From contig JAJZRQ010000003.1 of assembly GCA_021802585.1 (NCBI GenBank), positions 2,048 through 66,047 of the forward strand: DNA of 64,000 nucleotides, written 5' to 3'. This stretch comes from Chloroflexota bacterium (lineage in GTDB: Bacteria; Chloroflexota; Limnocylindria; Limnocylindrales; CSP1-4). The position numbers and the translations under genes were made by a program. Positions within the stretch are counted from its first letter, which is position 1. Each line of letters begins with the position of its first letter. This document shows, piece by piece, positions 24,892-64,000 of this stretch. Under the pieces are notes generated by a model. It saw nothing but the letters and a program-made list of their open reading frames with translations, ran no database searches and was not told the DNA's origin.

Positions 24892-25281
24892 TCAGGCCGA
24901 GGCTTCCGCGGCGTGCGTCGCCGCGTCGAGCACGAGGGCCCGGAGGTGATCGTCGACGAGGCGGTAGCGGGCGATCCGGCCGTCCTTCCGGCGGACGACG
25001 GCGCCGCGCTCGCGGAGCGTCCGGAGCTGATGCGAGAGGGCCGAGACGCTCATCCCGAGGACGAGCGCGATGTCGCAGACGCAGAGGTCCGCCTCCGCGA
25101 TCGCGAGGAGGTGGACGATCCGGGCGCGCGAGGGGTCGGCGAGGGTCGAGAAGAGGTCGGCGACCGCCGTCGAGCCCGCCGGGCCGAGGCTCCGGCCGAG
25201 GAGCGGGCGGATCGCCGCCGGGTGGAGGCACGCGACCTCGCAGCGGTCGGCGTCGATCGCCGAGGCGAACAGTTGAGCCAC
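24892..25281 (-). CDS. ArsR/SmtB-family metal-sensing repressor
   Basis: LADPSRARIVHLLAIAEADLCVCDIALVLGMSVSALSHQLRTLRERGAV is a winged HTH with the LCVCD metal-site motif. It lies immediately upstream of the CDF genes. Confidence 0.85.
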   Translation of the reverse strand: MAQLFASAIDADRCEVACLHPAAIRPLLGRSLGPAGSTAVADLFSTLADPSRARIVHLLAIAEADLCVCDIALVLGMSVSALSHQLRTLRERGAVVRRKDGRIARYRLVDDHLRALVLDAATHAAEASA

Positions 25282-25401
25282 CGCTCAAGTATTGCACGCC
25301 GCCGGCCGCCCCGCCGTGCCGGTGCGGCCGCGCCGCGCCGGTGTCCCGGCCCGGGCCCGCATGCGGTTGCGCGAACCGCGGATGTGGCGGACCCTTCGCA
25401 C

Positions 25402-26103
25402 GTGACCACGTCCCCGTCCCGCATCCTCGTCGTCGACGACGAGGCCCCGATTCTCGACCTCGTCCGCGGCTACCTCGAGCGCGAGGGGTTCACGGTGACG
25501 ACCGCGGCGGACGGCCCTTCCGCCCTCGAGGCCGTGCGGTCCGCGGCGCCCGACGTCGTGATCCTCGACGTCATGCTCCCCGGCATCGACGGGATCGAGG
25601 TCTGCCGGCGGCTGCGGACGTTCTCCGACGCGTACGTCCTCATGCTCACCGCCCGCGGCGAGGAGATCGACCGGATCGTCGGGCTGAGCGTCGGCGCCGA
25701 CGACTACCTCGTGAAGCCGTTCTCGCCGCGCGAGCTCGTGGCCCGGGTGAAGGCGCTCCTCCGCCGCCCGCGCGGGGCGGGCCCCGGCGCGGAGCCCGCC
25801 TCGCGGATCGCGGCCGGCCTCGAGATCGACGAGGCCCGCCGATCCGTCCGCGTCGACGGCCGGGCCGTGGAGCTGACGACGATCGAGTTCGACCTCCTGG
25901 CGACCCTCGCCCGCGACCCCGGCGTCGTCGTCCGGCGGCAGGCGCTCCTCGACCGCGTCTGGGGGATCGACTTCGTCGCCGACGACCATCTCGTCGACGT
26001 CCACGTCGCGAACCTCCGCCGCAAGCTCGGCGACGACCCGGCGCAGCCGCGCTTCGTCGAGACGGTCCGCGGCGTCGGCTACCGGCTCCGCGAGGAGGCG
26101 TGA
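25402..26103 (+). CDS. OmpR-family response regulator (TCS-1)
   Basis: Canonical receiver RILVVDDE...DVVILDVMLPGIDG...MLTARGEE...[10 protein letters not shown] and a winged-helix output TIEFDLL...VDVHVANLRRKL...ETVRGVGYRL. Confidence 0.9.
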   Translation: MTTSPSRILVVDDEAPILDLVRGYLEREGFTVTTAADGPSALEAVRSAAPDVVILDVMLPGIDGIEVCRRLRTFSDAYVLMLTARGEEIDRIVGLSVGADDYLVKPFSPRELVARVKALLRRPRGAGPGAEPASRIAAGLEIDEARRSVRVDGRAVELTTIEFDLLATLARDPGVVVRRQALLDRVWGIDFVADDHLVDVHVANLRRKLGDDPAQPRFVETVRGVGYRLREEA

Positions 26104-27194
26104 TGCCGTTCATCCGCTCGCTCCGCGCCCGGCTCCTCGTCGCCTTCCTCGTCGTCATCGGGGCGACCCTCGGGACCGTCGCCGTGGCGGCACTCCTCGT
26201 CGGCCCCGGCTACTTCGCCGAGGCGATGGGGCACCTCCCGGGGGACCAGATGGGGCAGGCGATGGCCGACGCGACCCAGGCGGCGTTCGACGACGCGATG
26301 CAGCGCGCCCTCGTCGCGGCGACGGTGATCGCCGTCGTCAGCGCGACCGTCGTGAGCCTCGCCGTCGCGGCCCGGATCGCGCGGCCGGCGGCGACGCTCG
26401 CGGCGGCGGCGCGGCGGGTGGCCGGCGGCCACTATGCCGAGCGCGTGCCGGTCGAGGCGCCCGAGGAGCTCGGCGCGCTCGCCGCGTCGTTCAACGAGAT
26501 GGCGGGCTCGCTCGAGGCGACGGAGCGACGCCGCCTCCAGCTCGTCGGCGACGTGGCCCACGAGCTGCGGACGCCGCTCACGACGCTCGACGGGTACCTG
26601 GAAGGTCTGGAGGACGGCGTCATCGCACCGACCGCCGAGACCTGGCGCCTCCTTCGCGCGGAGACCGGCCGGCTCACCAGGCTCGTGAACGACCTCTCCG
26701 AGCTCTGGCGGGCCGAGGCCCGCCAGTTCGCGCTGCGGATCGAGCCCCTCGACATCGCGGGGCTCGCGCGCGAGGTCGCCGACCGCTTCGCGCCGCTGGC
26801 CGCGCCGCGGTCCGTGCGCCTCGACCTGCGCGGCGGGCCGGCCGTCGCGGTCGCCGACCGCGACCGGGTCGCCCAGGTCCTCGCGAACTACCTCTCGAAC
26901 GCTCTCCGCCACGCCCCCGACGGCTCGGCGATCACGGTGTCCGCGACGACGCGCGACGGGCGGGTCGCGCTCGCCGTCGCCGACGAGGGCCCGGGCCTCT
27001 CCCGCGACCAGCTGGAGGCCGTCTTCGAGCGCTTCTACCGCGCCGACCCCGCCCGGAGCCGCGCCTCCGGCGGGTCCGGGATCGGCCTCGCGATCGTGCG
27101 CGCGCTCGCGGCGGCGATGGGCGGGCGCGCCTGGGCCGAGAGCCCGGGACCCGGCCGCGGCGCGACGTTCGTCCTGGAGCTGCCGGCGGCCTGA
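26103..27194 (+). CDS. Sensor histidine kinase with HAMP domain (TCS-1)
   Basis: Two TM helices flank a Met/His/Asp-containing periplasmic loop. H-box VGDVAHELRTPLTTL, N-box NYLSNALRHAP, G-boxes DEGPGL and GGSGIGLAIV. The ATG overlaps the RR stop. Confidence 0.9.
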   Translation: MPFIRSLRARLLVAFLVVIGATLGTVAVAALLVGPGYFAEAMGHLPGDQMGQAMADATQAAFDDAMQRALVAATVIAVVSATVVSLAVAARIARPAATLAAAARRVAGGHYAERVPVEAPEELGALAASFNEMAGSLEATERRRLQLVGDVAHELRTPLTTLDGYLEGLEDGVIAPTAETWRLLRAETGRLTRLVNDLSELWRAEARQFALRIEPLDIAGLAREVADRFAPLAAPRSVRLDLRGGPAVAVADRDRVAQVLANYLSNALRHAPDGSAITVSATTRDGRVALAVADEGPGLSRDQLEAVFERFYRADPARSRASGGSGIGLAIVRALAAAMGGRAWAESPGPGRGATFVLELPAA

Positions 27195-27254
27195 TGCGGC
27201 GGCTCGAGGCGGCGGCTCGAGGCGGCGGCTCGAGGCGGCGGCCTGAGGCGGCGG
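27195..27254. repeat. 13-bp tandem repeat (3 perfect copies, 1 degenerate copy, then a partial) directly after the kinase stop
   Basis: gcggcggctcgag occurs at 27195, 27208 and 27221, then gcggcggcctgag at 27234, then a partial copy. Confidence 0.8.
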
Positions 27255-27434
27255 GCCCGCGCGGCAGGTCGCGCGGCAGGCAGGACCCGGCCGCGGGACC
27301 GCCGGCGGGCCCGGCGCTTGACCGGATCTTGAGGCGCGCTTGCCCCGCGCCGCATCGGCGCCTGAGGCGGTTCCGTGATCCTCGAGGCGTCGCCGGAGGC
27401 GTCCCCCCGGCGAGCCCGCACCGAGGTGCCGACG

Positions 27435-27665
27435 ATGATGACTGGCTGGACCATGGGCCTCGCGGGCTGGGTCTGGATGGGCATCTGGATCCTCGCCCTG
27501 GTCGTCCTCGTCTGGCTCCTCGTGCGGACCCCCACTCCCCGTTCCGAGCCCGGGGCGCCGATCGACGTGCTCCGGGCCCGGCTCGCCCGCGGGGAGATCA
27601 CCCCCGAGGAGTTCGAGCGGGCCCGCGCCCTGCTCGACGCCGACACCCCGAGGAGCTCCCCGTGA
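27435..27665 (+). CDS. SHOCT-domain small membrane protein
   Basis: MMTGWTMGLAGWVWMGIWILALVVLVWLLV (TM helix) followed by LRARLARGEITPEEFERARALL (SHOCT motif). A paralog lies at 49879-50100, and the start was chosen by alignment to it. Confidence 0.7.
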   Translation: MMTGWTMGLAGWVWMGIWILALVVLVWLLVRTPTPRSEPGAPIDVLRARLARGEITPEEFERARALLDADTPRSSP

Positions 27666-27684
27666 TTCCCTGGGCCACCCGGCC

Positions 27685-28143
27685 ATGACCACGCGTGCCG
27701 CCCGCCGGAGCGCCGACGCGTCCCGGCCCACGACGCTCGCACGCCTCCGGCCGCTCGCCTTCGCCGGCGTCGTCGTCGGCGTCCTCACCGTTGGGGCGTT
27801 CCTCGCCTTCGGCGACTTCCTCAACCGGCCGGCGACCGCGGCGGGGACGATCAGCGTCCAGAGCTCGATGGCCGGCTTCACGCCTGCCGAGATCCGGGTG
27901 AAGGCCGGCTCCACCGTCACCCTCGACTGGTGGACGCAGGACGCGGCGATGCACCTCCAGGGCGGCGTCCACACGATGATCGCGCCCGACCTCGGGCTGC
28001 GGGAGGAGCTCGCGGCGGAGAGCCGGAGGGCGGTCGTGTGGCAGGTCCCGGACAAGCCCGGGACGTACGACGTCTACTGCGACACGTGCTGCGGCGGGAA
28101 GGACAGCCCGACGATGCACGGCACGATCGTCATCGAGGCCTGA
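27685..28143 (+). CDS. Membrane-anchored cupredoxin-fold protein with unusual C-x2-CC-GG...MH motif
   Basis: N-terminal TM anchor. FTPAEIRVKAGSTVTLDW...PGTYDVYCDTCCGGKDSPTMHGTIVIEA follows the cupredoxin strand pattern, but the ligand loop is Cys-rich. A paralog lies at the window's right edge. Confidence 0.7.
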   Translation: MTTRAARRSADASRPTTLARLRPLAFAGVVVGVLTVGAFLAFGDFLNRPATAAGTISVQSSMAGFTPAEIRVKAGSTVTLDWWTQDAAMHLQGGVHTMIAPDLGLREELAAESRRAVVWQVPDKPGTYDVYCDTCCGGKDSPTMHGTIVIEA

Positions 28144-28146
28144 GCG

Positions 28147-29034
28147 GTGGCGACCTCCGCCGCCCCGACCCGGACGACGCCGGCCGCACCCGACGAGGCA
28201 CCTCCGGCGGCCCCGCGCCTCGTCCTCGGCCTGCCCGTCGCGGCGGCGGTGCTCGGGGGCGCCCTCGCGGCCGTCGGCCTCGTCGCCGCCGCGTACGTGG
28301 CGGCCGTCCCGTTCGACACCGCGGCGTTCGGCGGGCTGACCGTCCCGACCGTCCTCGCCTCCGGCGTCGCCGATGGGTTCAACCCCTGCGCATTCGCCCT
28401 CCTCGTCCTGTTCGCGACGTACACCCTCACCCTCGCGAACGCCGTGACGTCGGACGGCCGGCCGACGCTCGAGGCGCGGCGCCGCCTCCTCGGCGCGGGG
28501 TCGCTCTACGTCGGCGCCGTCTGGGTCACGTACTTCATCATCGGGCTCGGCCTCCTGAGCTTCCTCGGCTGGCTCGGGCGCGACCACCTCGTCGCCCGGG
28601 TCGCCTCGATCGTGGCCCTCCTCATGGCGCTGTGGATGCTGAAGGACGTCCTCCTGCCGGGCGTCGGCCCGTCGATGCTGGCCCCCTCGGGGACCCACGG
28701 GCGGATGCAGCGGGCGATGGAGCGCGGCGGCCTCGCCGGGATGCTCGTCGCGGGGGTCCTCGTCGGGATCTGCACGGTCCCCTGCTCGGGCGCGATCTAC
28801 CTCGACATCGTGGCCGTCCTCCACGCCTCCGGCGGCGGCCTCACCGGCCTCGCCCTCCTCGCCCTCTACAACATCGCGTTCATCGTCCCGCTCCTCGTCC
28901 TCCTCCTGGCCGTGAGCGATCGCCGCGTGCTCGGGCAGCTGGGGCGCTGGAACCGGGCGAACTCACCGTGGATCAAGACCGGCCTCGCCCTCGCGGTCAT
29001 CGCGATGAGCTTCGGCCTCATGGTGTCGATGTGA
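28147..29034 (+). CDS. CcdA/DsbD-like transmembrane thiol-disulfide electron-transfer protein
   Basis: Six-TM profile with a Cys in TM1 (GFNPCAFALLVLF) and a CTVPCSGAIY motif in a later helix, as in the DsbD/CcdA superfamily. A paralog lies at 62808-63665. Confidence 0.7.
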   Translation: MATSAAPTRTTPAAPDEAPPAAPRLVLGLPVAAAVLGGALAAVGLVAAAYVAAVPFDTAAFGGLTVPTVLASGVADGFNPCAFALLVLFATYTLTLANAVTSDGRPTLEARRRLLGAGSLYVGAVWVTYFIIGLGLLSFLGWLGRDHLVARVASIVALLMALWMLKDVLLPGVGPSMLAPSGTHGRMQRAMERGGLAGMLVAGVLVGICTVPCSGAIYLDIVAVLHASGGGLTGLALLALYNIAFIVPLLVLLLAVSDRRVLGQLGRWNRANSPWIKTGLALAVIAMSFGLMVSM

Positions 29035-29339
29035 CGCCCGAGCCCCTGCCCGTCGTCGAGACGATCCGCTTCCCCGTCGAGGGCATGACCTGCGTCTCGT
29101 GCGTCAACCGGATCGAGCGCGCCGTGCGGAAGGTCGAGGGCGTCCGCCGGGTCCGCGTCGACCTGGGGCACGAGACGGCGACCGTCAGCCGCGAGCCCGC
29201 CCTGGTGTCGGACGCGGCGCTCGCGGCGGCGGTCGAGGGCGCCGGGTACCGGGCCGACCTCGCGGCCGCGGTCCCCGTGGCGCCCGGCGAAGCGCCCGAC
29301 GGGGCACGCGGCTGGCTGGCGCGGCTCCTCGGGCGCTGA
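29031..29339 (+). CDS. copZ: Heavy-metal-associated (HMA) domain copper chaperone, CopZ-like
   Basis: FPVEGMTCVSCVNRIERAVRKVEGV carries the canonical GMTCxxC motif. The GTG start overlaps the upstream stop (GTGA). Confidence 0.8.
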   Translation: MTPEPLPVVETIRFPVEGMTCVSCVNRIERAVRKVEGVRRVRVDLGHETATVSREPALVSDAALAAAVEGAGYRADLAAAVPVAPGEAPDGARGWLARLLGR

Positions 29340-29355
29340 GCCCCGCGCCTCCGGC

Positions 29356-30789
29356 CTAGCGAATGACGAGCCCCGCAGCCGCGAACGCCGCCACGAACGG
29401 CTCGGCGGCCACGCCCGTCACGACGACGGCCGCCGCCGCCGCGAACGTCGCCGAGGCCGCCGGCCTGCCGAGCACGGCCACCGTCCCGGCGGGCCGGCCG
29501 AAGTACGCCGGTGCCAGCACGCGAACGTAGTAGAAGATCGAGACCACGGTGTTCACGGCGGCGGCGACCGCGAGCCACGCGTAGCCGACCTGGATCGCCA
29601 CGAGGAAGAGGAGCAGCTTCGCGACGAAGCCGTTGAGCGGGGGCACGCCGATGAACGAGAGGAAGCTGATGGCGAGAGCCGCGGTCAGCGCCGGTCGCCG
29701 CTCGCCGATCCCGGCAACGTCGGCGAGGGCCGTGCGACCCCGCAGCTCGACGACGACGCCGAAGGCAGCGAGGTTGCCGAGCACGTAGGCGAGGAGGAAG
29801 AACAGGAGGGCCGGCACCGCGAGGTCGCTGGAGCCGAGGGCCACGACCGCCATGAGGCCGTATCCCGTCTGTGACACGGCCGACCAGCCGAGGAGCCGCC
29901 GCAGGTCGTCCTGCCAGAGGCAGGCGAGGTTGCCGAGCGTCATCGTCGCCGCAGCCAGGACCGCGACGAGCGGCTGCCAGCCGGCTGCGTCCGGCGGCAG
30001 GGCGATGACGAAGCGAGCGAGGAAGATGAAGCCGCCCACCTTCGGAACGGTCGTCACGAAGGCCGCCACCGGCGCGGGGGCGCCCTGGGCGACATCCGGC
30101 ACCCAGGCGTGGGCGGGCACCGCGCCGATCTTGAACGCCAGGCCGACGACCACGAGCCCGACGCCGATGACGAGCGCGAGCCCGCCGTCGGAGGGCAGGC
30201 CGGCGGCGAGGCCGCCGAGCGTCGTCGAGCCGGCCAGCCCGAACAGGAGGGCGACGCCGAAGAGCATCGCCGAGTTCGCCAGGGCGCCGATGAGGTAGTA
30301 CTTGATCGCGGCCTCCGCCGCCTGCGACGAGCGCCGGTGATAGGCCGACAGCACGAACCCGGTGGCGGACGACAGGAGCATCGCGACGACGAGCTCCTTC
30401 AGGTCGGTCGCGCCCGCCAGGAGGATCGCCCCGAGCGAGGAGAAGAGGAGCAGGGTGTAGTACTCCCCGTGGCGTGGATCGCGCCGGAACCACGGCGCCG
30501 ACAGGCCGATCACCGCCACGGTCGCGGCGAGGACGATGATCTTCGCCCAGAGCGCCGTGCGGTCGCGGGCGTACGTGCCGAAGAAGGTCACGAGCTCGGT
30601 GCCCGGCAGCATCGCGAGCGCCACGGTGAGGGCCGCGACGGCCACGAGCATCGCCACGACGGCCGCCCCTCCCTGGAGGCGTCTCGGCGCGAGGAGGGCG
30701 TACAGGAGGACGAGGACGCCACCGGCAACGAGGACGATCTCGGGGAGGACGTCCGTCACCATCGTGGCCATCGTCGCCTGCCCGGTCAT
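29356..30789 (-). CDS. nuoN: Complex-I-like antiporter subunit, NuoN-like
   Basis: EYYTLLLFSSLG, AAIKYYLIGALANSAMLFG, FKIGAVPAHAWVPDV and about 14 TM helices. The ATG at 30789 is preferred over the upstream ATG at 30891, which precedes a non-membrane Arg/Ala-rich leader. Confidence 0.85.
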   Translation of the reverse strand: MTGQATMATMVTDVLPEIVLVAGGVLVLLYALLAPRRLQGGAAVVAMLVAVAALTVALAMLPGTELVTFFGTYARDRTALWAKIIVLAATVAVIGLSAPWFRRDPRHGEYYTLLLFSSLGAILLAGATDLKELVVAMLLSSATGFVLSAYHRRSSQAAEAAIKYYLIGALANSAMLFGVALLFGLAGSTTLGGLAAGLPSDGGLALVIGVGLVVVGLAFKIGAVPAHAWVPDVAQGAPAPVAAFVTTVPKVGGFIFLARFVIALPPDAAGWQPLVAVLAAATMTLGNLACLWQDDLRRLLGWSAVSQTGYGLMAVVALGSSDLAVPALLFFLLAYVLGNLAAFGVVVELRGRTALADVAGIGERRPALTAALAISFLSFIGVPPLNGFVAKLLLFLVAIQVGYAWLAVAAAVNTVVSIFYYVRVLAPAYFGRPAGTVAVLGRPAASATFAAAAAVVVTGVAAEPFVAAFAAAGLVIR

Positions 30790-30862
30790 GTGCCGACCCT
30801 CGCGGCGTCCGCCTGCCGCGCCGGCCGCCGGGGGCGACGAAGGCGCTCGTGCCTGCCCCTCG

Positions 30863-32362
30863 TCATGGTCGACCGACGAACGGGCCGGCAAAGGAATCGA
30901 CGACGCCGAGCAGCCACGCCGGGGCGACGCCGATGAGGACGACGAGGAAGACGAGCAGCCCGAGCCCGGCGGTCTCGACCCGCGTGAGGTCCGGGAAGGA
31001 CCGCCAGCGCTCCGGGAGGGACCCGAGGAAGAGCTTCTGGAGCATCCGCAGGAAGAGCGCGGCCGTGATGACGATGCCCAGCAGGCCCACGCCGGCGAGG
31101 ACGGGGTAGATCGCCAGCGTCCCGACGAACACCTGGATCTCGGCCACGAACCCGGCGAGCCCGGGAAGGCCGAGGCTGGCGAAGGCGAGGACGGCCGTCA
31201 GGCCCGTGAGCGAGCGGGCGCGGGTGAGGAGTCCGCCGTACTCATCCATCTCGTACGTGCCGCCGCGCGCGAGGATGGCACCGCTGACGAGGAACAGGCC
31301 GCCGGTGATGAGGCCGTGGGCGACCATCTCGACCGTCGCCCCCGTCAGGGCGATCGCCCGCGCCGCCTCCTGGCCGGTGACCGCCGCGCCGGCGACGGCA
31401 AGACCGAGGATGACATAGCCCATGTGGTTGACGCTCGTGTACGCGATGGCCCGCTTGAGGTTCGTCTGCGCGAGCGCCACGAGGGCCCCGTAGACGATCG
31501 CGACCACCGCGAGGATGGCGATCGGAAGCGAGAGCTGGGCCCATGTGTCGGGCATCATCGCCATGAGGATCCGCACGAACCCGTACGTCCCCATCTTGAG
31601 GAGGACGCCGGCGAGGATTGCCGACGCCGGCCCGGGCGCGTCGACGTGGGCCGGCGGCAGCCACGTGTGAACGGGGACGAGGGGCGTCTTGATCGCGAAG
31701 CCGATGAAGAAGCCGATGAAGACGAGGATCGCGTACGGGCTCCCGGCGGGCAGCGGCTGCTGGCGGATGATCTGCGCCATGTCGAAGGTCCGCGGCTCGG
31801 TGACGAGGTAGAGGCCGAGGATCGCCAGCAGGAGGGGCAGCGAGCCGGCGAACGTGTAGAGGAAGAACTTGAGCGCCGATCGCTGGGCGTCGCCGTGGCC
31901 CCAGGCCCCGATGAGGAAGTACATCGCGACGAGCGAGACGTCCCAGAAGACGAAGAACAGGAAGAGGTCGAGAGCGAGGAAGAGGCCGATCGAGATCCCC
32001 TCCAGGAACAGCATGAGGGCGAAGTACGGGACGGGCCGGCCGCGGAGGTCGACCGGGAAGGCGATCGCGACGACGAAGACGACCGCGGTCATGGCCGCGA
32101 GTGGAAGCGACAGGCCGTCGACCCCGACGCGATAGCCGATCCCCAGGGTCGGGATCCAGTCCACGGCCTCGACCTGCTCGAACGCTCCCGTGCCCCGGAA
32201 CCCGAGCCAGGAGGCCGCGACCAGGACGAGAGGCAGCGCGCTGATGACCGTCGCGAGCACCTGGACCCGGCGCTCCGCCCCGGGTCCGGCGGTGCGGCCG
32301 CGGGGCAGGATGGCGAACCCGACGGACGCGATGATCGGGACGAAGATGGCGGCGGTCAGCAC
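30863..32362 (-). CDS. nuoM: Complex-I-like antiporter subunit, NuoM-like
   Basis: GVDGLSLPLAAMTAVV, LFLFFVFWDVSLVAMYFLIGAWG, ALKFFLYTFAGSLPLL and KTPLVPVHTWLPPAHV are NuoM/Nqo13 signatures. Confidence 0.9.
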   Translation of the reverse strand: MLTAAIFVPIIASVGFAILPRGRTAGPGAERRVQVLATVISALPLVLVAASWLGFRGTGAFEQVEAVDWIPTLGIGYRVGVDGLSLPLAAMTAVVFVVAIAFPVDLRGRPVPYFALMLFLEGISIGLFLALDLFLFFVFWDVSLVAMYFLIGAWGHGDAQRSALKFFLYTFAGSLPLLLAILGLYLVTEPRTFDMAQIIRQQPLPAGSPYAILVFIGFFIGFAIKTPLVPVHTWLPPAHVDAPGPASAILAGVLLKMGTYGFVRILMAMMPDTWAQLSLPIAILAVVAIVYGALVALAQTNLKRAIAYTSVNHMGYVILGLAVAGAAVTGQEAARAIALTGATVEMVAHGLITGGLFLVSGAILARGGTYEMDEYGGLLTRARSLTGLTAVLAFASLGLPGLAGFVAEIQVFVGTLAIYPVLAGVGLLGIVITAALFLRMLQKLFLGSLPERWRSFPDLTRVETAGLGLLVFLVVLIGVAPAWLLGVVDSFAGPFVGRP

Positions 32363-32416
32363 GATCGGGCTCCCCGATGGTCGGCGTGAATGGCGGACGG
32401 CATCGCCGGCGTGCCT

Positions 32417-34342
32417 TCAGCGAGCTGTGGCCAGGATCGCCACGACGGCCGCCAGTCCGACGGCCATGACGACGAAGTACTCGTGGGACAGCCCCGTCTG
32501 GAGCCTGCGACTCTGGTGCCCGGCCAGGCCGACGCCCTGCCCGATTGCCTCCACGGTGGCGTCGACGCCCGCGTCGTCGGCGATCCGTGAGGCGGCGGCC
32601 GTGGACAGCCAGCCCCGGGCGACGAGCCCGACGGCGCCGTCGATCATCCGCTCCAGGCGTCGCGAGAAGAGGCGTGACACGGTCTCCCCGAGCGCGGCGG
32701 TGCGCCGAACCCCCGCGTCGACCACCCGCTCGTCGAGGAGGCGGAGCAGGCGCGACAGCCTGAGGGAGGGTCGCACGACGAGCGCACCGGTCGCGGCTGG
32801 GAGCCCAAGCCAGTCACCGGCCGCGTCCTGCGCGGCTGGCGCCAGCCCCAGCGTCAGCAGGTGGCTGCGTCGCCGCAGGAGGAACGCGAGCCAGAACGCG
32901 ACGGCGACGAGGAGGAGCGCCGCGGCCGTCTCTCCCGGCGGGCCTGCCGGGGGCAGCGGACCGGCGACCTCCTCAACGAGCGCGGCGGCGCCCGGGAGCC
33001 ACAGGAGGGACAGGCCGACGGTCACCGTCGCCAGCACCGCCATGCTGCCGGTCGCCACCCGGCCGGGAGCGTGGAGGCCCTGCGGCCCGTCCGCCCCGGG
33101 GCCCTCGGCGCGACCGTAGGCGAGGAGCTGGTAGCGGGCGGCGTAGAGGGCGCTGAGGAAGCCGGCGGCGAGGACGGCGGCGCCGAACCACGCGGATGCG
33201 TCGGCGGCGCCGGCGAGGATCTGCTCCTTGGACCAGGCGGCCCCGAGCGGTGGGACGGCGGCCAGGGCGAGCGCGCCGATCCACGACAGCAGCGCGATCC
33301 GCGGCAGCGCGCGTCCCAGCCTCAGGCCCCCGAGCCGGCCCGTCCCGCCGGCGTGGATGGCGACCCCGGCCCCGAGGAACAGGAGGGACTTGAAGGCGGC
33401 GTGGGCCACGAGCTGCGCCGCAGCAGCGGCCGGGAAGCCGGCTCCGACGGCGGCGAACATGAGGCCGTACTGGGCGGATGTCGAGGCCGCCAGCGCCCGC
33501 TTCGCGTGCGTCTGGACCGTCGCGACGATCCCGCCGGCGAGGGCGGTCACGAGGCCGACGACGGCGACGGCCGGCAGGAACCAGCCGACGGGTTCGAGGA
33601 CGGGCGAGAGCCGGATGAGGAGGAAGGCACCGGCAGCGACGAGGGTCGCGGAGTGGAGGAGCGCCGAGACGGGCGTCGGGCCCGCCATCGCCGCGAAGAG
33701 CCAGGGCGAAAATGGCACCTGGGCGGACTTGGCCGCGGCCGCCAGGAGGACACCGGCCGCGATGATGCCGCGAGCCGTGCCGTCCGTGCCTCCCACGGCC
33801 TCGAACGCGAACGACCCGCTGGCGGCGAACGTCGTCCCCGCGGCGAGGTAGAGCCCCAGGTCCCCGAGGCGCGTCGTGAGGAAGGCGGCGGCCGCGGCGC
33901 GGGGGTTGTCCGGGTCGCGCCAGCCGTGGCCGATGAGCGCCCAGGACAGGGCCCCCACGAGCTCCCACGCGACGAGGAGCGTGACGAAGTCGGACGCCGA
34001 GACCAGCAGGAGCATCGCCGCGACGAACGCGAGCATGAGGCCCAGGAGGCGCACGCGCCCCTCGTCCTCCGTGACCGCCGCGTAGGCCACGATCGGCGTC
34101 GCCACGAGCGGGACGAGGACGATCATGACCCTCCCGAAGCCCTCGACGGCGAGCCGCAGCTCGATGAGGCGGCTCCACTGCCAGGCGAACGTGGGCTCCG
34201 TCGTCGCGACCCAGGCGCCGACGCCGATCGTCACGACGAGCGCCAGCACGGCGACCCCGGCGACGGCGCGGGCGTGCGCGCGCAGCACGACGACGAGGAC
34301 GGCACCGAGCGCCGGGACGACGAGGGGCAGCAGGGCGTTCAT
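32417..34342 (-). CDS. nuoL: Complex-I-like antiporter subunit with C-terminal lateral helix, NuoL-like
   Basis: LLVAWELVGALSWALIGHGW, KSAQVPFSPWLFAAMAGPTPVSALLHSATLV, and a long C-terminal amphipathic segment plus a final TM helix, as in NuoL/Nqo12. Confidence 0.9.
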   Translation of the reverse strand: MNALLPLVVPALGAVLVVVLRAHARAVAGVAVLALVVTIGVGAWVATTEPTFAWQWSRLIELRLAVEGFGRVMIVLVPLVATPIVAYAAVTEDEGRVRLLGLMLAFVAAMLLLVSASDFVTLLVAWELVGALSWALIGHGWRDPDNPRAAAAAFLTTRLGDLGLYLAAGTTFAASGSFAFEAVGGTDGTARGIIAAGVLLAAAAKSAQVPFSPWLFAAMAGPTPVSALLHSATLVAAGAFLLIRLSPVLEPVGWFLPAVAVVGLVTALAGGIVATVQTHAKRALAASTSAQYGLMFAAVGAGFPAAAAAQLVAHAAFKSLLFLGAGVAIHAGGTGRLGGLRLGRALPRIALLSWIGALALAAVPPLGAAWSKEQILAGAADASAWFGAAVLAAGFLSALYAARYQLLAYGRAEGPGADGPQGLHAPGRVATGSMAVLATVTVGLSLLWLPGAAALVEEVAGPLPPAGPPGETAAALLLVAVAFWLAFLLRRRSHLLTLGLAPAAQDAAGDWLGLPAATGALVVRPSLRLSRLLRLLDERVVDAGVRRTAALGETVSRLFSRRLERMIDGAVGLVARGWLSTAAASRIADDAGVDATVEAIGQGVGLAGHQSRRLQTGLSHEYFVVMAVGLAAVVAILATAR

Positions 34343-34644
34343 CCCTTGAGCCGCCGCAGCTTCTCGGTGATGTCGGCGCGCCGTACCCGGTAGACACCGG
34401 TGATGAGGGCGAAGCCGAGCGCCATCTCGACCGCCATGACCGTCATGAAGACGACCCCGAGCATCTGGCCCTGCGGGCTCCCGCCCGCGGCCCGGGCCCA
34501 GAGGACCACGAGGGCGAGGATCGCCCCGTTGATGAGCAGCTCGATGCCCATCATGAGCATGACGAACGACTGCTGGCTCAGGGCGCCGTACACCCCGATG
34601 CCGAACAGGGCCGCGGCGACGACGAGGACCGCCTCCGTCGTCAT
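34339..34644 (-). CDS. nuoK: NuoK-like subunit
   Basis: 101 aa, 3 TM helices, with MMGIELLINGAIL and AVEMALGFALI carrying the two conserved Glu. 4-nt overlaps with both neighbours. Confidence 0.85.
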   Translation of the reverse strand: MTTEAVLVVAAALFGIGVYGALSQQSFVMLMMGIELLINGAILALVVLWARAAGGSPQGQMLGVVFMTVMAVEMALGFALITGVYRVRRADITEKLRRLKG

Positions 34645-35210
34645 CGGCCGGGCTCCTCGTCCGGCTGGAGGGACGGCTCGATCGAGTCCTCCTCGGCGAC
34701 GCCGAAGCGACCCTTCCGGCCCGCGATGACGACGGCGCCGATCATCGTCGACAGGAGCGCAACGCCGGCCGACTGGAAGACGAGCATGGAGTCTCCCAGG
34801 AGCTCTGTCCCCAGCTCGGCGGTGGCGGTCGAGGGATCCGGGACGGGTCGCGCCGGGAAGTTTCCGAGGAGCCCGACCGCGGCGAGGGCGACGAAGGCGA
34901 CGATGCCGGCCACCGCGGCGCGGCGGTTCTGGTGGACCATGACCATCGGGTTGAGGCCGGCTGGGTTCATCATGAACATCACCATCACGATGGCCATGAT
35001 CAGCATCTCGCCCGCCATCATGAGGATGAGCACCATCCCCAGGAACTCCGCCCCGAGGAGGACGACGATCCCGCCGACGCCGGCGAACGAGGCGAGGAGG
35101 TAGAAGGCGGCCCGGACCATGGAATCCGTGCGGAAGACGCGGTAGCCCGCGACGATGCTGCCGAGCGCGAACACCCAGAACGTGGCGTCGACGAGCGGCC
35201 CGGCGATCAC
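34641..35210 (-). CDS. nuoJ: NuoJ-like subunit
   Basis: 189 aa. FWVFALGSIVAGYRVFRTDSMVRAAFYLLASFAGVGGIVVLLGAEFLGMVLILMMAGEMLIM resembles the NuoJ N-terminal helices. The GTG start overlaps the nuoH-like stop (GTGA). Confidence 0.75.
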   Translation of the reverse strand: MIAGPLVDATFWVFALGSIVAGYRVFRTDSMVRAAFYLLASFAGVGGIVVLLGAEFLGMVLILMMAGEMLIMAIVMVMFMMNPAGLNPMVMVHQNRRAAVAGIVAFVALAAVGLLGNFPARPVPDPSTATAELGTELLGDSMLVFQSAGVALLSTMIGAVVIAGRKGRFGVAEEDSIEPSLQPDEEPGR

Positions 35211-36139
35211 AGGAGGATGGCCCCCGACACGAAGACGTTGAGGAGGGCGAGGGGGATGAGGACGGCCCAGGCGACGAGGACGAAGGTCGCGATCCGGACG
35301 CGCGCGAGCAGGTGGCCGGCGGCGAGGATCGCGAGGAGGACCGCCCCCGTCTTCGCGATCATCCATGCCGGGCCGGGCAGGATCGGGCCCCACCAGCCGC
35401 CGAGGAACCCGGCAGCTCCCATCGCGGCGACCGCGACCAGCATGGCCGAGCGGGCAATCGTCCAGAGGAGCCGGGCGACCCCGCTGTCCTCCACCGAGGT
35501 GCCGCCCGCCACGTCGCTCGCGTCGCTGAGGTTGAGCGGCCCCCAGAAGCTGACCCCCACCCCGACGACGAGGTAGAGCGGCAGGCCGAGCGGCTGTCGG
35601 AGCACGTTCCAGGCGGGTTCCTGGGCCCGCACGATGTCGACGATGGAGAGCGACTCGGCCGGCAGCGCGGTGGCCAGCATCGCCAGGAGGAACGGGATCT
35701 GGAAGGACAGGGCGGCCGCCCCGTACCGGTACGCGCCATGGAGTGCGAATGGCGAGTTCGGCGACCAGCCGTGGAGGAACACCGCGATCATGACGAAGGC
35801 GATCGCGGCGGAGAAGGCGACGAAGCCAGTCGACGGATCAGCGATGACGAGATCGGGGCCAAGCGGGACGAGCGCGAGGGCGAAGGCCGCGAGGCCGAAG
35901 AAGAGCGCCGGGGCGACCGCCCAGCCGGCGCCGTCGGGGCGCTCCGTCGTGCGACGCTGCTGGACGAGGAGCGCGGCGGCCGCTGCGAGCGGGACGACGA
36001 GGAGCCGCCGCCACGAGCCGACCGCACCGGCCACGAGCGCGGCGGCGAACCGGTCGAGGACTGCCACGAGGTACACGCCTGCCACGAGCGCGGCGGCGGT
36101 CGCGAGCAGGGCGACCTCCGCGCCGACGTACGGCCTCAC
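35207..36139 (-). CDS. nuoH: Divergent NuoH-like subunit
   Basis: HGWSPNSPFALHGAYRYGAAALSFQIPFLL and GGWWGPILPGP align with NuoH GWsSNskYallGalRaaAQ.iSYEv and fGGW.gP. The conserved acidic loop is altered (see findings). The GTG at 36139 overlaps the upstream stop. Confidence 0.75.
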   Translation of the reverse strand: MRPYVGAEVALLATAAALVAGVYLVAVLDRFAAALVAGAVGSWRRLLVVPLAAAAALLVQQRRTTERPDGAGWAVAPALFFGLAAFALALVPLGPDLVIADPSTGFVAFSAAIAFVMIAVFLHGWSPNSPFALHGAYRYGAAALSFQIPFLLAMLATALPAESLSIVDIVRAQEPAWNVLRQPLGLPLYLVVGVGVSFWGPLNLSDASDVAGGTSVEDSGVARLLWTIARSAMLVAVAAMGAAGFLGGWWGPILPGPAWMIAKTGAVLLAILAAGHLLARVRIATFVLVAWAVLIPLALLNVFVSGAILL

Positions 36140-37455
36140 GCCGCGGCCTCGGGGCGGGCCCGGCCTCGGGCGAGGGGCCCCTCCTCGAGATCGAGGTCGA
36201 GGCTCACGATCGTCGCGACGACGTCGCCCCACTCGTGCTCGCGGAGGAGGGACGGGAGCACCGTGAAGAGGCGCTCACTCGCCGAGCTCTCCGCCTCGAG
36301 GCGACCACGCGGCGTCTCGACGCGACCCGTGGCCGTCGCGGCACGGGCGCCCGCGCGCGCCGCGAGGTCCAGCGACTGGACGGCCTCGCCGAGGCGGAGC
36401 CGCAGCCGCGCGGCGGCATCGCCACCCGCGTCGACGAGCGGAGCGAAGCCGAGGTCGCGGTATGCCGGATCCTCCAGACGGAGGTCCTCCCGCAGGCCGG
36501 AAGCCCGGGCGACTGGTCCGGCGCCGAGCCCGGCGACGGCTTCCGGCGGCACAGCCCCGACGCCTCGAAGGGACCACCGCAGGACCTGGGTCGCCGAGAT
36601 GATCGTGGCCAGGCGGCGGACGAGCGCCCCGTCGCCCGCCCGGAGGTTGGCCGCGATCCGGAGCGCGCGGAGCGCCAGCGCCTCGAGCCCGGCCGCGAGG
36701 AGCGCCTCGGCCACCGAGCGCAGGTGGGCGCGGGCCCGGGCGAGCTCGAGGTCAGCGATCGCGACCCGCTCGCCGAGCGCGCGGAGGAACGGGTCGGCCT
36801 CTGGAGAAGGCGCGGCTGCGGTGGCGTTCGCCAGGAGGTTCGCGACCTCGACCTCGAGCACGAGGTCACCGGCCAGGCGGGCGTCGACGACGAGGCCCGC
36901 CGGGAACCGGGGGAAGAGCGGGCCGACCGCCACCGGAAGCACGTCGAGGCGGAGCCCATCCGGGTCCGGCCCGAGCTCGGCCATCGGTCGGCCATACGGG
37001 ACGCCTCCCGTCATCCCGCTCCCGCCCTGGCCGTACGGGCCGACCCCGCGCCACGGCGCGGGGTCGACGTCGGGCAAGATCGGCGGCTCGGAGCCACGGC
37101 GACCGACGAGGATGTCGCGGTAGGCGGCGACGCACGCAGCGACGGGGTCGCCGTCGACGGGGATCGCGTCGTCGAATCCTTCCGGTCGCCCGAGACCGGC
37201 CGCTCCGGCCGACCAGAGGACGGTCGCCCGCGGGTGGGCCATCGCGTCATGCACGCGGGCGACCGCCATCTCCATCTCCGCGGGCACCAACCCGCCGACG
37301 AGCAGGACGGAGGCCGGCCGCGGGGTGTCGACGAGGCGGATCTCCGGTCGGAGGCGGAGATCCCGGATCAGCGAGCGCGTCCCGGGGCCGGCCACGGCGA
37401 ACACGGGGACGGGCGCGCCCGTGGCGACGCGGGCGAGGAGAGCCGTCAGGCCCAT
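36136..37455 (-). CDS. Single ORF fusing a Cys-poor NuoB-like domain to a NuoD-like (49-kDa/NiFe large-subunit-like) domain
   Basis: The N-terminal VDTPRPASVLLVGGLVPAEM resembles the NuoB SPRQADvmiVaGtvt.km segment. The C-terminal part contains VETPRGRLEAE (compare NuoD/hydrogenase EAPRGElg) and ends GDVVATIVSLDLDLEE (compare NuoD aDvvAiiGSiDiVmGEvDR). There is only one Cys in the whole NuoB-like part. Confidence 0.7.
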   Translation of the reverse strand: MGLTALLARVATGAPVPVFAVAGPGTRSLIRDLRLRPEIRLVDTPRPASVLLVGGLVPAEMEMAVARVHDAMAHPRATVLWSAGAAGLGRPEGFDDAIPVDGDPVAACVAAYRDILVGRRGSEPPILPDVDPAPWRGVGPYGQGGSGMTGGVPYGRPMAELGPDPDGLRLDVLPVAVGPLFPRFPAGLVVDARLAGDLVLEVEVANLLANATAAAPSPEADPFLRALGERVAIADLELARARAHLRSVAEALLAAGLEALALRALRIAANLRAGDGALVRRLATIISATQVLRWSLRGVGAVPPEAVAGLGAGPVARASGLREDLRLEDPAYRDLGFAPLVDAGGDAAARLRLRLGEAVQSLDLAARAGARAATATGRVETPRGRLEAESSASERLFTVLPSLLREHEWGDVVATIVSLDLDLEEGPLARGRARPEAAA

Positions 37456-37808
37456 TCCAGGGCCCGCTCCCGCCACGCGTAGAGCACCCCGAGGAGGAGG
37501 ATCGTGATGAACATCCCCATCTCGACCATCGCGATGAGCCCTTCCCGGACGAAGACGACCGCCCACGGGTACATGAAGACCATCTCCATGTCGAAGGCGA
37601 GGAAGATGAGCGCCATCGAGTAGTAGCGGACGTGGTAGCGGTTCCAGGCATGCACGCGGGGGTCGGCGCCGCCCCCGAACGGCACGCGTTCGGGGGCGGT
37701 CTGCGCGGGGGACCGGGGCCGACCCCCGAGCCACCAGGACGCCAGCACGACCGCGAACCCGGCCACGAAGACGGCGAACGAGACGGCAAGCGGACCGAGA
37801 GCAACCAT
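37446..37808 (-). CDS. nuoA: Divergent NuoA-like subunit
   Basis: 120 aa, 3 TM helices. RYHVRYYSMALIFLAFDMEMVFMYPWAVVF matches NuoA F...fYlvAilFiiFDvEvvFlyPWa. The usual YECG segment reads FGGG here. Confidence 0.75.
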   Translation of the reverse strand: MVALGPLAVSFAVFVAGFAVVLASWWLGGRPRSPAQTAPERVPFGGGADPRVHAWNRYHVRYYSMALIFLAFDMEMVFMYPWAVVFVREGLIAMVEMGMFITILLLGVLYAWRERALEWA

Positions 37809-37846: not shown

Positions 37847-38005
37847 TCAGACGTAGTCCTCGGGAGCCTCCGTGAAGCTGTCGGCGCAGTCCTGGCTGCA
37901 GAAGGAGTAGACGGTGCCGTCGTGCTCGACGGTCGCCACGGCATCCGACGGGCGGATGCGCATCTGGCAGACGGGGTCGACGACGAGCTGCTCGGTGTCG
38001 GACAT
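37847..38005 (-). CDS. YHS/TRASH-domain small metal-binding protein
   Basis: VVDPVCQMRIRPSDAVATVEHDGTVYSFCSQDCADSFTEAPEDY is a YHS-domain pattern (DPVCgM...y.FCs..C...F). The ATG at 38005 is preceded by GGAGGAG. It lies 38 bp upstream of, and co-directional with, the nuoA-like gene. Confidence 0.75.
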   Translation of the reverse strand: MSDTEQLVVDPVCQMRIRPSDAVATVEHDGTVYSFCSQDCADSFTEAPEDYV

Positions 38006-38145
38006 GTGGAACTCCTCCGTGGGGTGCTGGTCGGCGGTCCTACCGTCGGGCCGACGGATGAGAGACACATGAGCGCCGCGTGAGAACGAGCCCGGGGCGA
38101 GCCCGCCCTGTCACGCCTCCGACGGCCATGTCGTAGCATAGGTCC

Positions 38146-39880: not shown

Positions 39881-40062
39881 GAGGCCGCCACCGTACCAGA
39901 TGCAATGCCCGGGCACGCGGGGCCACCCGTCGCCCGGGCCGGTGCCACGTCGGGAGGCCGGTCGAGTTCGCCGGCGCGCCGCGTCCTCTCAGGACATCCT
40001 CATCGTGCTCTCAGGGAAGGCCCGCATCGTCAGCGCGATCCGCAGCCGCCAGGGGGATTCTG

Positions 40063-53973: not shown

Positions 53974-54089
53974 GCCGACGTCCGGCCCGGCTCCGCGCGT
54001 CATTCGAGGCGCGACAGGCCGGTCCTGCGCTGATGACCGGGCGCGGCATGTCGGCCGCCTCCGAGAAGGACCCAGAAAGGAACGTGGAC

Positions 54090-62807: not shown

Positions 62808-63665
62808 CTATACCGTGACGAGGATCGCGAACCCGAGGACGAGGACGACGACCGCGAGGACGAGCTTCGTCCCGCCCGCGTATCGCAGGTGCCACCGGTT
62901 CAGGACGCGGATGAGACCGGGCCGGCTGGCGAGGAGGAGCAGCGCCACGAGGGGCGTGATGTAGGCGAGGTTGTAGAGGGCGAGGCCACCCAGCCCGGCG
63001 GCGACGGTCCCGCTCGTGCCAAGGAGGGCGACGACCCCCAGGTAGACCGCGCCGCTGCAGGGCACCGTGCAGAGCCCGATGAGCACGCCGCCGCCGAACA
63101 GGGCGAGCGGCGAGCTCGTCCGCGCCCACGCGCGCATGCGGCCGTGGAGGGCGTGAGGGGCCTCGAGCTGCCAGGAGGCGTCCGGCAGGAGGACGTCGCG
63201 AATCATCCAGATCCCCATCCCCACGGCGATGAGCGCGGCGATCCGGCTCGGCAGGTGATTGCTCCCGAAGTCGGCGAGCGACGCCACGGTCGTCAGGAGA
63301 CCGAGGCCGAGCACGAAGTACGTCACGAGCACGCCGAGGACGAAGAAGATCCCAAGGCCGAGCACGGTCCGGCTGGCGGCCCTCGCGCCGGCGAGGTCGG
63401 GAGTGGCCGACGACCGCACGGACTCGCGCGCGGCGAGCCCGAGGGCGAACGTCGCGAAGAGGATGAGGACGCCGAACGCGCAGGGGTTGAAGCCGTCGAG
63501 GATCCCGGCCGCGACGATCGCCGGAGCGCTGAGGTCGACCAGCGTCCGATGGTCGCCCATCGCCGGCGCGGCGCCGGCGACCGCGGCGACCGCGGCCGCC
63601 GCGACGACCCCGGCGACGACGAGGAACAGTCGGGGATGCGCGACCCGGCCGCTCGGAGCCTGCAT
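62808..63665 (-). CDS. CcdA/DsbD-like transmembrane protein (paralog of 28147-29034)
   Basis: It conserves GFNPCAFGVLILFATF and GLCTVPCSGAVYLGVVALL, and is colinear with the other copy. Confidence 0.7.
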   Translation of the reverse strand: MQAPSGRVAHPRLFLVVAGVVAAAAVAAVAGAAPAMGDHRTLVDLSAPAIVAAGILDGFNPCAFGVLILFATFALGLAARESVRSSATPDLAGARAASRTVLGLGIFFVLGVLVTYFVLGLGLLTTVASLADFGSNHLPSRIAALIAVGMGIWMIRDVLLPDASWQLEAPHALHGRMRAWARTSSPLALFGGGVLIGLCTVPCSGAVYLGVVALLGTSGTVAAGLGGLALYNLAYITPLVALLLLASRPGLIRVLNRWHLRYAGGTKLVLAVVVLVLGFAILVTV

Positions 63666-64000
63666 CAGGCGGTCACGGTGAGGGTCCCGCGCATCGACGG
63701 GTTGTCACGCCCGCCGCAGCAGATCCCGCAGTACCACGTGTACGTGCCCGCCGCCGGCGCGGTCAGGGTGAAGACCCTGCTCTCTTCGGGGCCGACCTTC
63801 CAGTCGACGCCCAGCTCATCCACGGCGAATTCGTGCCACCCGCCCCCGTCGGCGTGGAACTGCGTGTCCATGTTCGCGAGCTCGATCCGGACTTCCTGGC
63901 CGGCCTTGACGGCGAGCGCCGCAGGCTCGAACCCTCCCATCGACGTGTGGACCTGGAGGGCCGTCGCGTCGGTCGCCCCGGGTGGCTGGAGCCGGCTGAC
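63665..64000 (-). CDS. Cupredoxin-fold protein with C-x2-CC-GG motif (paralog of 27685-28143); 5' end outside the window
   Basis: FEPAALAVKAGQEVRIELAN...AGTYTWYCGICCGGRDNPSMRGTLTVTA. The frame stays open to the window edge, and the upstream residues (..ATALQVHTSMGGF) align with the paralog, so the true start is beyond 64000. Confidence 0.7.
   Translation of the reverse strand, partial: VSRLQPPGATDATALQVHTSMGGFEPAALAVKAGQEVRIELANMDTQFHADGGGWHEFAVDELGVDWKVGPEESRVFTLTAPAAGTYTWYCGICCGGRDNPSMRGTLTVTA

Follow-up and report, generated by a model that had tools for sequence, protein, structure and literature searches.

The question raised by this locus is what a cupredoxin-fold protein with three cysteines in its putative metal-site loop (here called the tri-Cys cupredoxin) does, and why its gene is followed directly by one for a DsbD/CcdA-type membrane protein (here called the partner). 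The stretch of DNA analysed, called the window below, is 64,000 nucleotides (nt) of a Chloroflexota bacterium, is about 75% G+C, and has its closest protein relatives in Chloroflexota, mainly in Candidatus Limnocylindria metagenome bins. The motif C-x2-CC-GG occurs exactly twice in its six-frame translation, at nt 28078 on the plus strand and nt 63730 on the minus strand, and both occurrences fall inside cupredoxin open reading frames (ORFs). The loop of copy 1 is YCDTCCGGKDSPTMHG and its C-terminal sequence reads ...PGTYDVYCDTCCGGKDSPTMHGTIVIEA; the full-length form of the copy 2 cupredoxin is P0121, with 167 amino acids. The two partners are 42% identical, and the cupredoxin-partner pair is duplicated as one unit within the window. 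The initial annotation gave the loop as C-x2-CC-GG-x4-M(H/R)G; the motif is indeed present in both copies, with five residues (KDSPT), not four, between GG and Met. The answer we favour, to which we give about an even chance of being right, is that the outer cupredoxin has a CuA-derived, thiolate-rich site for Cu(I), whose thiols are kept reduced by its private partner through C81 and C213.

With the copy 1 cupredoxin as query 1,212 matches are found at 90% clustering, and the motif C-x2-CC-GG-x3-P-x-M-x-G marks a family of about 1,200 clusters of 90% identity from more than ten phyla, including archaea. Among the matches listed, C-x2-CC-GG-x5-M is present in all 120, and the motif is likewise present in all 240 of the close homologs listed. 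An exhaustive profile search that was not biased by the motif, run against 1.84 billion 50%-identity representatives, gave 1,688 matches. All 59 full-length representatives at 100 bits or more have the three cysteines, and orthologs lacking CC, which the initial annotation had foreseen as counter-evidence, were not seen among them; the tier at 95 bits or below consists of type 1 copper (T1) cupredoxins (C-x4-H-x4-M) and CuA-type cupredoxins (C-x3-C-G-x-G-H-x2-M), and the sole family member between the tiers, P0313 at 98 bits, is out of frame. Because the listed homologs and all 59 representatives carry it, the motif is not a chance feature.

Genomic members were collected with a degenerate DNA pattern for (aromatic)-C-x2-CC-GG-x3-P-x-M-x-G in one genome per species from 185,579 species, which yielded at least 119 loci where about one is expected by chance; all counts of genomic loci given here are among the matches listed. 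All 119 listed loci encode true family members (E<1e-30). C132, C135, C136, G138 and M144 are invariant in 44 members that are 24–57% identical to copy 1, and among 117 genomic members M62 is conserved in 115, D86 in 114, H90 in 116 and H96 in all, these four positions lying outside the pattern by which the members were collected. The residue after the Met (position 145) is Q in 43, H in 32, N in 18 and R in 13 of the genomic members and, because it varies in this way, is not a ligand. The candidate ligand set M62, H90, H96, C132, C135, C136 and M144 would suffice for a bi- or multinuclear thiolate copper site.

The cupredoxin fold seen in the initial annotation is borne out by Pfam, by structure prediction and by structural matches to CuA domains and CupA. 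Both copies pass the cutoff of 27 bits for Pfam Cupredoxin_1 (PF13473), copy 1 with 42.3 bits and copy 2 with 52, and the AlphaFold2 model of copy 1 (mean predicted local distance difference test score, pLDDT, 86, and above 93 in the domain) has an N-terminal helix (residues 17–46) followed by an eight-stranded Greek-key beta-sandwich. This model gives 341 Foldseek matches in the PDB at E<=1e-3, the best 50 nearly all of cupredoxin fold; the matches include the CuA domains of ba3 oxidase and nitrous-oxide (N2O) reductase, CupA, FtrB and a Bacillus anthracis Cupredoxin_1 protein. The last (4HCF/4HCG) and other PF13473 proteins belong to the same Pfam family and superimpose with TM-scores of about 0.85 on the target; unlike the tri-Cys proteins they have a single-Cys, T1-like loop, and they are themselves uncharacterised. 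Phmmer with the cupredoxin sequence alone found only marginal plastocyanin and amicyanin matches, and NCBIfam holds no dedicated model for either the cupredoxin or the partner, with weak matches to L-NosZ, CoxB and ArsG only.

The best structural and profile matches of the cupredoxin are the CuA domains of haem-copper oxidase subunit II and nitrous-oxide reductase, which have the same fold. In an alignment of a profile of 44 diverse family members to CuA domains four ligand positions match: H96 falls on H114 of the ba3 oxidase, C132 and C136 on C149 and C153, and M144 on M160. The upstream His and the C-x3-C of CuA are present (H96, C132, C136), whereas the CuA loop His (3 residues after the second Cys; H157 in ba3) is absent family-wide and the Met is 8 residues past C136, a Cys-to-Met spacing one residue longer than in CuA. 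The tri-Cys family also adds the invariant C135, the upstream H90 and M62, and its members differ from CuA proteins in their single transmembrane anchor, in belonging to no oxidase and in having a dedicated DsbD-type gene. The T1 ligand set Cys-x(2-4)-His-x(2-4)-Met is absent as well, there being no His between Cys and Met. Because the CuA loop His has no counterpart, the site is CuA-derived yet lies outside the CuA and T1 definitions, which refines the statement in the initial annotation that the loop is of neither kind. A classical T1 or CuA protein was rejected as an identification on the missing loop His, and a CoxB paralog on the single transmembrane helix and the lack of a linked oxidase. 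From the aligned ligand positions, the tri-Cys cupredoxin clearly appears to descend from CuA-type domains; along the way the upstream His, the C-x3-C and the Met would have been retained, the loop His lost, and C135, H90 and M62 fixed.

Among 38 members with a clear transmembrane helix, the preceding 25 residues hold on average 6.2 Lys/Arg and the following 15 residues 1.2, a bias held in 34 of the 38. This charge distribution predicts, by the positive-inside rule, an outward-facing cupredoxin domain, and the protein would be tethered by its N-terminal helix on the outer face of the cytoplasmic membrane. In a fusion subclade (P0283, P0290, P0292, P0293, P0267 and P0257) a cytoplasmic HMA-like domain with D/E-H-x-C-C is followed by the transmembrane helix and the outer cupredoxin; most of these HMA-like domains are degenerate and have no CxxC, and locus L064 also carries such a fusion. 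These proteins would connect the outer site with a cytoplasmic thiol or metal site. P0241 is a natural SHOCT-cupredoxin fusion; database fusions of cupredoxin and partner (e.g. P0274) were rejected as out-of-frame read-throughs.

The initial annotation had allowed that the family might prove to be an already characterised copper chaperone. The sole such chaperone with a cupredoxin fold is CupA of Streptococcus pneumoniae (4F2E), which differs in site, orientation and clade. The two proteins share an N-terminal anchor, the fold, Cys/Met sulfur ligands and a connection with copper resistance, and copy 1 matches 4F2E with a Foldseek TM-score of 0.72 on the target, 24% identity and a profile E-value of 8e-7. 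The ligands of CupA are, however, one Cys of an earlier loop plus C-x-M-x-M, in place of the C-x2-CC-GG-x5-M found here. CupA is a Cys/Met Cu(I) chaperone with Cu(II)-reducing thiols (PMC7558416), and the way these thiols bind and reduce copper is a chemical precedent for the site proposed below. It acts from the cytoplasmic side (PMC7558416). Its domain is exposed to the cytoplasm and supplies CopA; the tri-Cys cupredoxin has a predicted outward orientation and a DsbD-type protein as partner. The two are distinct because a separate CupA-like gene (C...CGMG) shares the operon of L121, a relative of the copy 2 type; identification as a CupA ortholog was rejected on this gene and on the differences in motif and orientation. 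The CupA-like cupredoxin of L121 (9666-10193; DACSE ... FTCGMGRYRG) lies downstream of the partner and has C-terminal transmembrane helices, and the same type is present in L004, L015, L069 and L093. CopG offers a chemical precedent for C-x2-CC...M: this periplasmic protein of copper resistance has a CxCC motif, and its clustered CC and Met bind a multinuclear copper-thiolate cluster outside the cytoplasm (PMC7558416). Unlike the proteins described here, CopG has a thioredoxin-like fold, so that there is no homology, and no DsbD-type partner is known for it.

The genes that directly follow both cupredoxins encode, as the initial annotation proposed, CcdA/DsbD-like proteins with NPC and CTVPCSG motifs, and motif, profile and fold comparisons suggest that the partner truly belongs to the DsbD/CcdA family. 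In copy 1 the motifs are DGFNPCAF and GICTVPCSG, with C81 in NPC and C209 and C213 in CTVPC. The AlphaFold2 model of the partner (pLDDT 77) has one extra N-terminal transmembrane helix and a six-helix core, and its only meaningful Foldseek match is the nuclear magnetic resonance structure of CcdA, 5VKV (E 0.026, probability 1.0, TM-score 0.39–0.48, 24% identity over 238 columns). Hhalign aligns the partner profile to E. coli DsbD with a probability of 91.7% and an E-value of 7.6e-7, placing NPC81 on the TPC of DsbD (Cys163) and C209-T-V-P-C213 on C282-S-P-C285. By this alignment a Pro-Cys motif is present in the first helix of each three-helix repeat; the internal-repeat alignment, in which NPC is aligned with VPC, is weak (hhalign probability 2.5%), and a sequence search of the PDB with the partner profile found no match even at E<=10. 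C81 is conserved in all 101 partners compared, C213 in 97 and C209 in 96, and D76, N79, P80, Y129 and H147 are invariant. The extra Cys209 was considered as evidence of a metal site and rejected, E. coli DsbD having the same C-x-P-C arrangement. The partner resembles the CcdA/DsbD/ScsB transporters in its alignment to the membrane domain of DsbD, in keeping the catalytic cysteines and in having CcdA as its best fold match; it differs from them in the additional N-terminal helix, a Pfam score below the cutoff, the extra invariant D76, Y129 and H147, and a putative linked substrate that is a cupredoxin and not a thioredoxin-fold protein. Public pipelines annotate it as "cytochrome c biogenesis protein CcdA".

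The link between the two genes, which the initial annotation had put forward for comparison across genomes, proved nearly complete in both directions. The partner is directly downstream on the same strand in 114 of the 119 listed loci, and the gap between the cupredoxin ORF and the partner match that follows it ranges over −201 to +292 nt, the two mostly overlapping or being less than 30 nt apart. Among the five remaining loci, one is N-masked, one continues with HMA, Lgt-like and P1B-ATPase genes, one continues with TerC, and two are unclear. In the reverse test, which started from the partner motifs in metagenome contigs, the tri-Cys cupredoxin is directly upstream in 67 of the 69 loci with room for it. 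A CuA-loop relative on a Ralstonia megaplasmid has no such partner (a single case). Thioredoxin-fold genes are nearby in only about six of the 119 listed loci; with so few such neighbours the cupredoxin is therefore the likely direct substrate, if the partner is a reductant conduit. Most carriers are Chloroflexota, of all classes; the others include Methanoperedens and other Methanosarcinales archaea, Rokubacteria, NC10, Gemmatimonadota, Armatimonadota, Verrucomicrobiota, Omnitrophica, several Proteobacteria classes and Bacillota. Two cultured Bacillota, Paraliobacillus quinghaiensis YIM-C158 and Paenibacillus sp. BR2-3, carry the module, which is therefore directly testable.

The shared theme of the module's neighbourhoods, as far as gene content tells, is copper. 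Around the 119 listed loci, 8-kb chunks contain HMA genes in 27 cases, P1B-ATPases in 26, YHS and SHOCT genes in 23 each, response regulators in 34 and cytochrome b genes in 9; in about 16 loci the gene next after the partner is an HMA gene, and in 13 the cupredoxin is immediately preceded by a SHOCT gene. A relative of the copy 1 type, L120, has the order P1B-ATPase, response regulator, histidine kinase, SHOCT, cupredoxin, partner, HMA and plastocyanin-like protein, and in L121 the order is cytochrome b, T1 cupredoxin, CsoR-family protein, cupredoxin, partner, CupA-like cupredoxin, Lgt and TRASH. In Paraliobacillus the pair is just upstream of copY-copZ-copA. In the window itself Pfam confirms the neighbours of copy 1 given in the initial annotation, namely CopZ, SHOCT and a response regulator/histidine kinase pair (25384-27194) (Table 1). 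CDF and ArsR genes lie upstream of copy 1, and the metal genes of the window comprise two CDF genes, ArsR, a CopY/BlaI-like repressor with an M48/BlaR-like protein, and a multicopper oxidase; it also holds two further two-component systems, two YHS proteins, a P1B-ATPase, Lgt and Lit.

Table 1. The two cupredoxin-partner copies of the window and the genes beside copy 1
Feature	Coordinates	Strand	Remarks
OmpR-type response regulator	25384..26103	+	Pfam Response_reg 1e-31, Trans_reg_C 7e-28; upstream of copy 1
HAMP histidine kinase	26100..27194	+	Pfam HAMP, HisKA, HATPase_c
Small SHOCT-domain membrane protein	27375..27665	+	Pfam SHOCT 5.5e-9
Copy 1 tri-Cys cupredoxin, 152 aa	27685..28143	+	Basic N-tail; predicted transmembrane anchor at ~aa 24-42 and predicted outward domain
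Copy 1 putative metal-site loop	28078..28122	+	C132-D-T-C135-C136-G-G-K-D-S-P-T-M144-H-G
Copy 1 DsbD/CcdA-family membrane partner, 295 aa	28147..29034	+	Starts 3 nt past the cupredoxin
CopZ-like HMA protein	29031..29339	+	GMTCVSC; Pfam HMA 3.9e-15
Copy 2 tri-Cys cupredoxin	63665..64000	-	Loop YCGICCGGRDNPSMRG; N-terminus cut off by the window end
Copy 2 DsbD/CcdA-family partner	62808..63704	-	Start at 63665 or 63704

The reading we favour builds on features obtained here by computation, namely the fold, the positive-inside orientation, the residue conservation, the DsbD homology with aligned cysteines, the reciprocal synteny and the copper context; from these we infer copper binding, electron flow and the physiological role. 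The module would be a conserved two-gene copper-handling unit, in which the thiolate-rich site would bind Cu(I) ions, probably one or two of them, and reduction of Cu(II) may accompany the binding. The most likely task of the partner is to maintain the Cys cluster of the cupredoxin in the reduced form: it would relay cytoplasmic reducing equivalents via its intramembrane cysteines (C81; C209/C213) straight to the cupredoxin with no thioredoxin-fold intermediate. The three thiols would thereby be held in, or restored to, the metal-binding state in oxidising, copper-loaded surroundings. The substrates of the CcdA/DsbD/ScsB proteins include ResA, CcmG, TlpA (to CoxB/Sco1) and ScsC. A parallel to the proposed role of the partner is given by TlpA, which reduces CuA cysteines ahead of metallation (PMC7558416). 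The module would be deployed alongside copper sensors, CopZ and P1B-ATPases in a copper-stress response.

Several points weigh against this reading. The known substrates of CcdA/DsbD proteins have thioredoxin folds, and to our knowledge a cupredoxin as direct substrate is without precedent. With Pfam DsbD_TM the copy 1 partner scores 24.3 bits, below the gathering cutoff of 27.1, and the copy 2 partner gives no match; in 13 diverse members of the partner family SfLAP, a transporter-type relative, is matched by more proteins (9) than DsbD_TM (5) at E<0.01. The invariant polar residues D76, Y129, H147, Y218 and N242 are not obviously needed by a pure electron conduit. Finally, the cytoplasmic HMA proteins that adjacency and cytoplasmic-tail fusion tie to the module would suit a metal relay at least equally well.

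Such a relay is the alternative that survives best, and we regard it as possible but doubtful. Here the DsbD-fold partner would move metal itself, Cu(I) or another thiophilic ion being exchanged from ligand to ligand among a cytoplasmic carrier (CopZ/HMA or the His-x-Cys-Cys tail), the intramembrane C81, C209 and C213, and the outer tri-Cys cupredoxin. The translational coupling of the HMA gene to the partner in the window, the HMA genes directly downstream in other loci and the natural fusions of a cytoplasmic HMA-like domain and D/E-H-x-C-C to the outer cupredoxin are all consistent with this, as are the three conserved cysteines of the partner together with its invariant D76, H147, Y129 and N242, the SfLAP matches, and a parallel architecture on a Deinococcus plasmid (TauE/SafE with transmembrane Cys fused to a CupA-like cupredoxin, with HMA adjoining). 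MerP-MerT offers an analogy, having an outer thiolate carrier, an intramembrane Cys and a cytoplasmic thiolate acceptor, but has no relation in sequence or fold to the cupredoxin-partner pair. However, the Cys pattern of the partner, extra Cys included, matches that of the electron transporter DsbD (C163; C282-x-P-C285), all characterised DsbD/CcdA/ScsB proteins carry electrons and not ions, CxxC is lost in most of the fused HMA-like domains, and the majority of loci are without HMA genes. In one tentative version the repurposed DsbD/CcdA fold would form an ATP-independent thiolate "bucket brigade" that hands Cu(I) from the cytoplasmic site to the outer cupredoxin, or the pair would alternatively be a thiol-driven extracytoplasmic cupric reductase.

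It is unlikely that the cupredoxin is instead an electron-transfer copper protein. In that case the three Cys, two His and Met would form a new CuA-like redox centre (mixed-valent or multinuclear) of a membrane electron chain that also includes the cytochrome b and T1 cupredoxins encoded nearby, and the partner would be needed for assembly only. The CuA-derived domain, the conservation of two His, of two Cys at the bridging positions and of the Met, the cytochrome b genes in 9 of the chunks and the T1 cupredoxin directly upstream in about 12 would all accord with such a centre. The prevailing context is nevertheless copper sensing and efflux and not respiration, cytochrome b and T1 cupredoxin genes accompany a minority of loci, and no oxidase or reductase is consistently linked.

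A metal-free redox enzyme, which we also consider improbable, would use C132-x-x-C135 as a thioredoxin-like CxxC on a beta-sandwich (compare the DsbD alpha domain), and the cupredoxin, reduced by the partner, would repair copper-induced non-native disulfides or catalytically reduce Cu(II). Copper stress creates a need for periplasmic disulfide repair, the loop does contain a CxxC, and the DsbD-family partner has no thioredoxin-fold partner of its own; the near-invariant M62, H90, H96 and M144, however, occupy cupredoxin metal-ligand positions, and a metal-free disulfide reductase would need none of them. That the same architecture handles Hg(II), Ag(I), Cd(II) or another thiophilic metal is very unlikely. 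Mercury-handling proteins typically have vicinal Cys pairs, merB and merR are near the related fusion of Deinococcus, and CDF and ArsR genes precede copy 1, but no mer genes are seen in the annotated parts of the window and the recurrent neighbours are CopZ, CopA, CopY, YHS, multicopper oxidase and T1 cupredoxins.

Both components of the module are of familiar types, a cupredoxin copper protein and a DsbD/CcdA conduit. What is new is the tri-Cys site, together with the obligate pairing. A full-text literature search found no description of a cupredoxin paired with CcdA/DsbD or of a C-x2-CC cupredoxin, papers outside the searched collection being possible. Cupredoxin sites (T1, CuA and the Cys/Met cluster of CupA) are among the best studied in bioinorganic chemistry. 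If the reading favoured here, reduced thiols binding Cu(I), is true, the strictly conserved set of three Cys, two His and two Met, carried on a scaffold derived from CuA, would make a copper centre of a new type and a natural experiment on the re-tuning of a cupredoxin by loop changes, and the pairing would extend the substrate range of DsbD/CcdA conduits past thioredoxin folds; were the partner to relay metal, it would be a new mode of copper movement across membranes. The pipeline labels "cytochrome c oxidase subunit II/plastocyanin" and "cytochrome c biogenesis protein CcdA" mislead metabolic reconstructions.

Several details of the copy 1 region may be added. The GTG start of the HMA gene overlaps the stop codon of the partner by 4 nt, the histidine kinase has a short outer loop containing Met/His (AMGHLPGDQMGQAM), and translation of the SHOCT gene probably starts at the ATG at 27436. 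A promoter and terminator scan of 25200-29600 found none, as expected at 75% GC. Between the histidine kinase and SHOCT genes, at 27195-27300 (+), are tandem direct repeats, GGCGGCGGCTCGA three times followed by CGCGCGGCAGG twice, which may be regulator-binding sites or merely GC-rich slippage.

Elsewhere in the window, the P1B-type ATPase at 56618-59101 (-) has CPD, not CPC, CPH or SPC, as its transmembrane metal motif, and its N-terminus has three tandem His/Met-rich repeats, AEHAGHAMP(S/R), and a degenerate HMA domain. Adjoining it at 54561-56323 (+) are Lgt, with a long N-terminal extension, and Lit, a lipoprotein intramolecular transacylase; Lgt is also directly downstream of the module in L029, L071, L095, L099 and L113 and two genes downstream in L121, a placement that suggests copper-linked lipoprotein remodelling. 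A small secreted protein at 50146-50484 (+), with four tandem Met-rich GGMMNGQA repeats and no Pfam match, looks like a Cu(I)-binding Met-rich protein. At 50574-51547 (+) are the genes of a lipoprotein (lipobox LALAVVVGGC) and, after it, of a membrane protein with MLACCAHHLVDLLP, which has a vicinal Cys pair and a His pair within a transmembrane helix; in 15 of the 119 listed genomes the vicinity of the cupredoxin module again contains homologs of each of the two. At 38712-41205 the BlaI/CopY-like repressor (39461-39916, -) and the M48/BlaR1-like membrane protease (38712-39440, -) are divergent from the multicopper oxidase (40063-41205, +), after which come two two-component systems and a MacB-type ABC exporter. 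The small YHS/TRASH-domain proteins (DPVCxM) are encoded at 37847-38068 (-) and 54033-54278 (+), and one of them heads a long minus-strand operon of NADH-dehydrogenase-like membrane subunits, 29356-37808.

In other genomes, a membrane-anchored T1-type cupredoxin (HTFICTLPGHAAAGMTG) is encoded upstream of the tri-Cys cupredoxin on the same strand in L121 (7274-7663) and in about 12 further loci, such as L004, L017, L030 and L093, and in most of these loci no gene lies between; in L121 a CsoR-family protein with a single Cys stands between the two. The Deinococcus fusion mentioned above (Deinococcus sp. QL22 plasmid, L124, 3260-4507) joins a TauE/SafE membrane domain, with transmembrane-helix Cys in GGLSCLA and LIPCGV, to a CupA-like cupredoxin (CSMGM), and is annotated as "sulfite exporter TauE/SafE family protein"; next comes an HMA gene, with merB and merR in the vicinity. 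This locus is a parallel to the architecture of membrane Cys, cupredoxin and HMA. In an Acidiferrobacteraceae genome (L117, 424-2364) the pair comes after CcsA/ResB-like cytochrome c biogenesis genes, and in Methanoperedens (L014) it is flanked by small Cys-rich proteins (969-1427 and 3644-4126) with CPCECAMVISTCDC and a PCYCGC motif.

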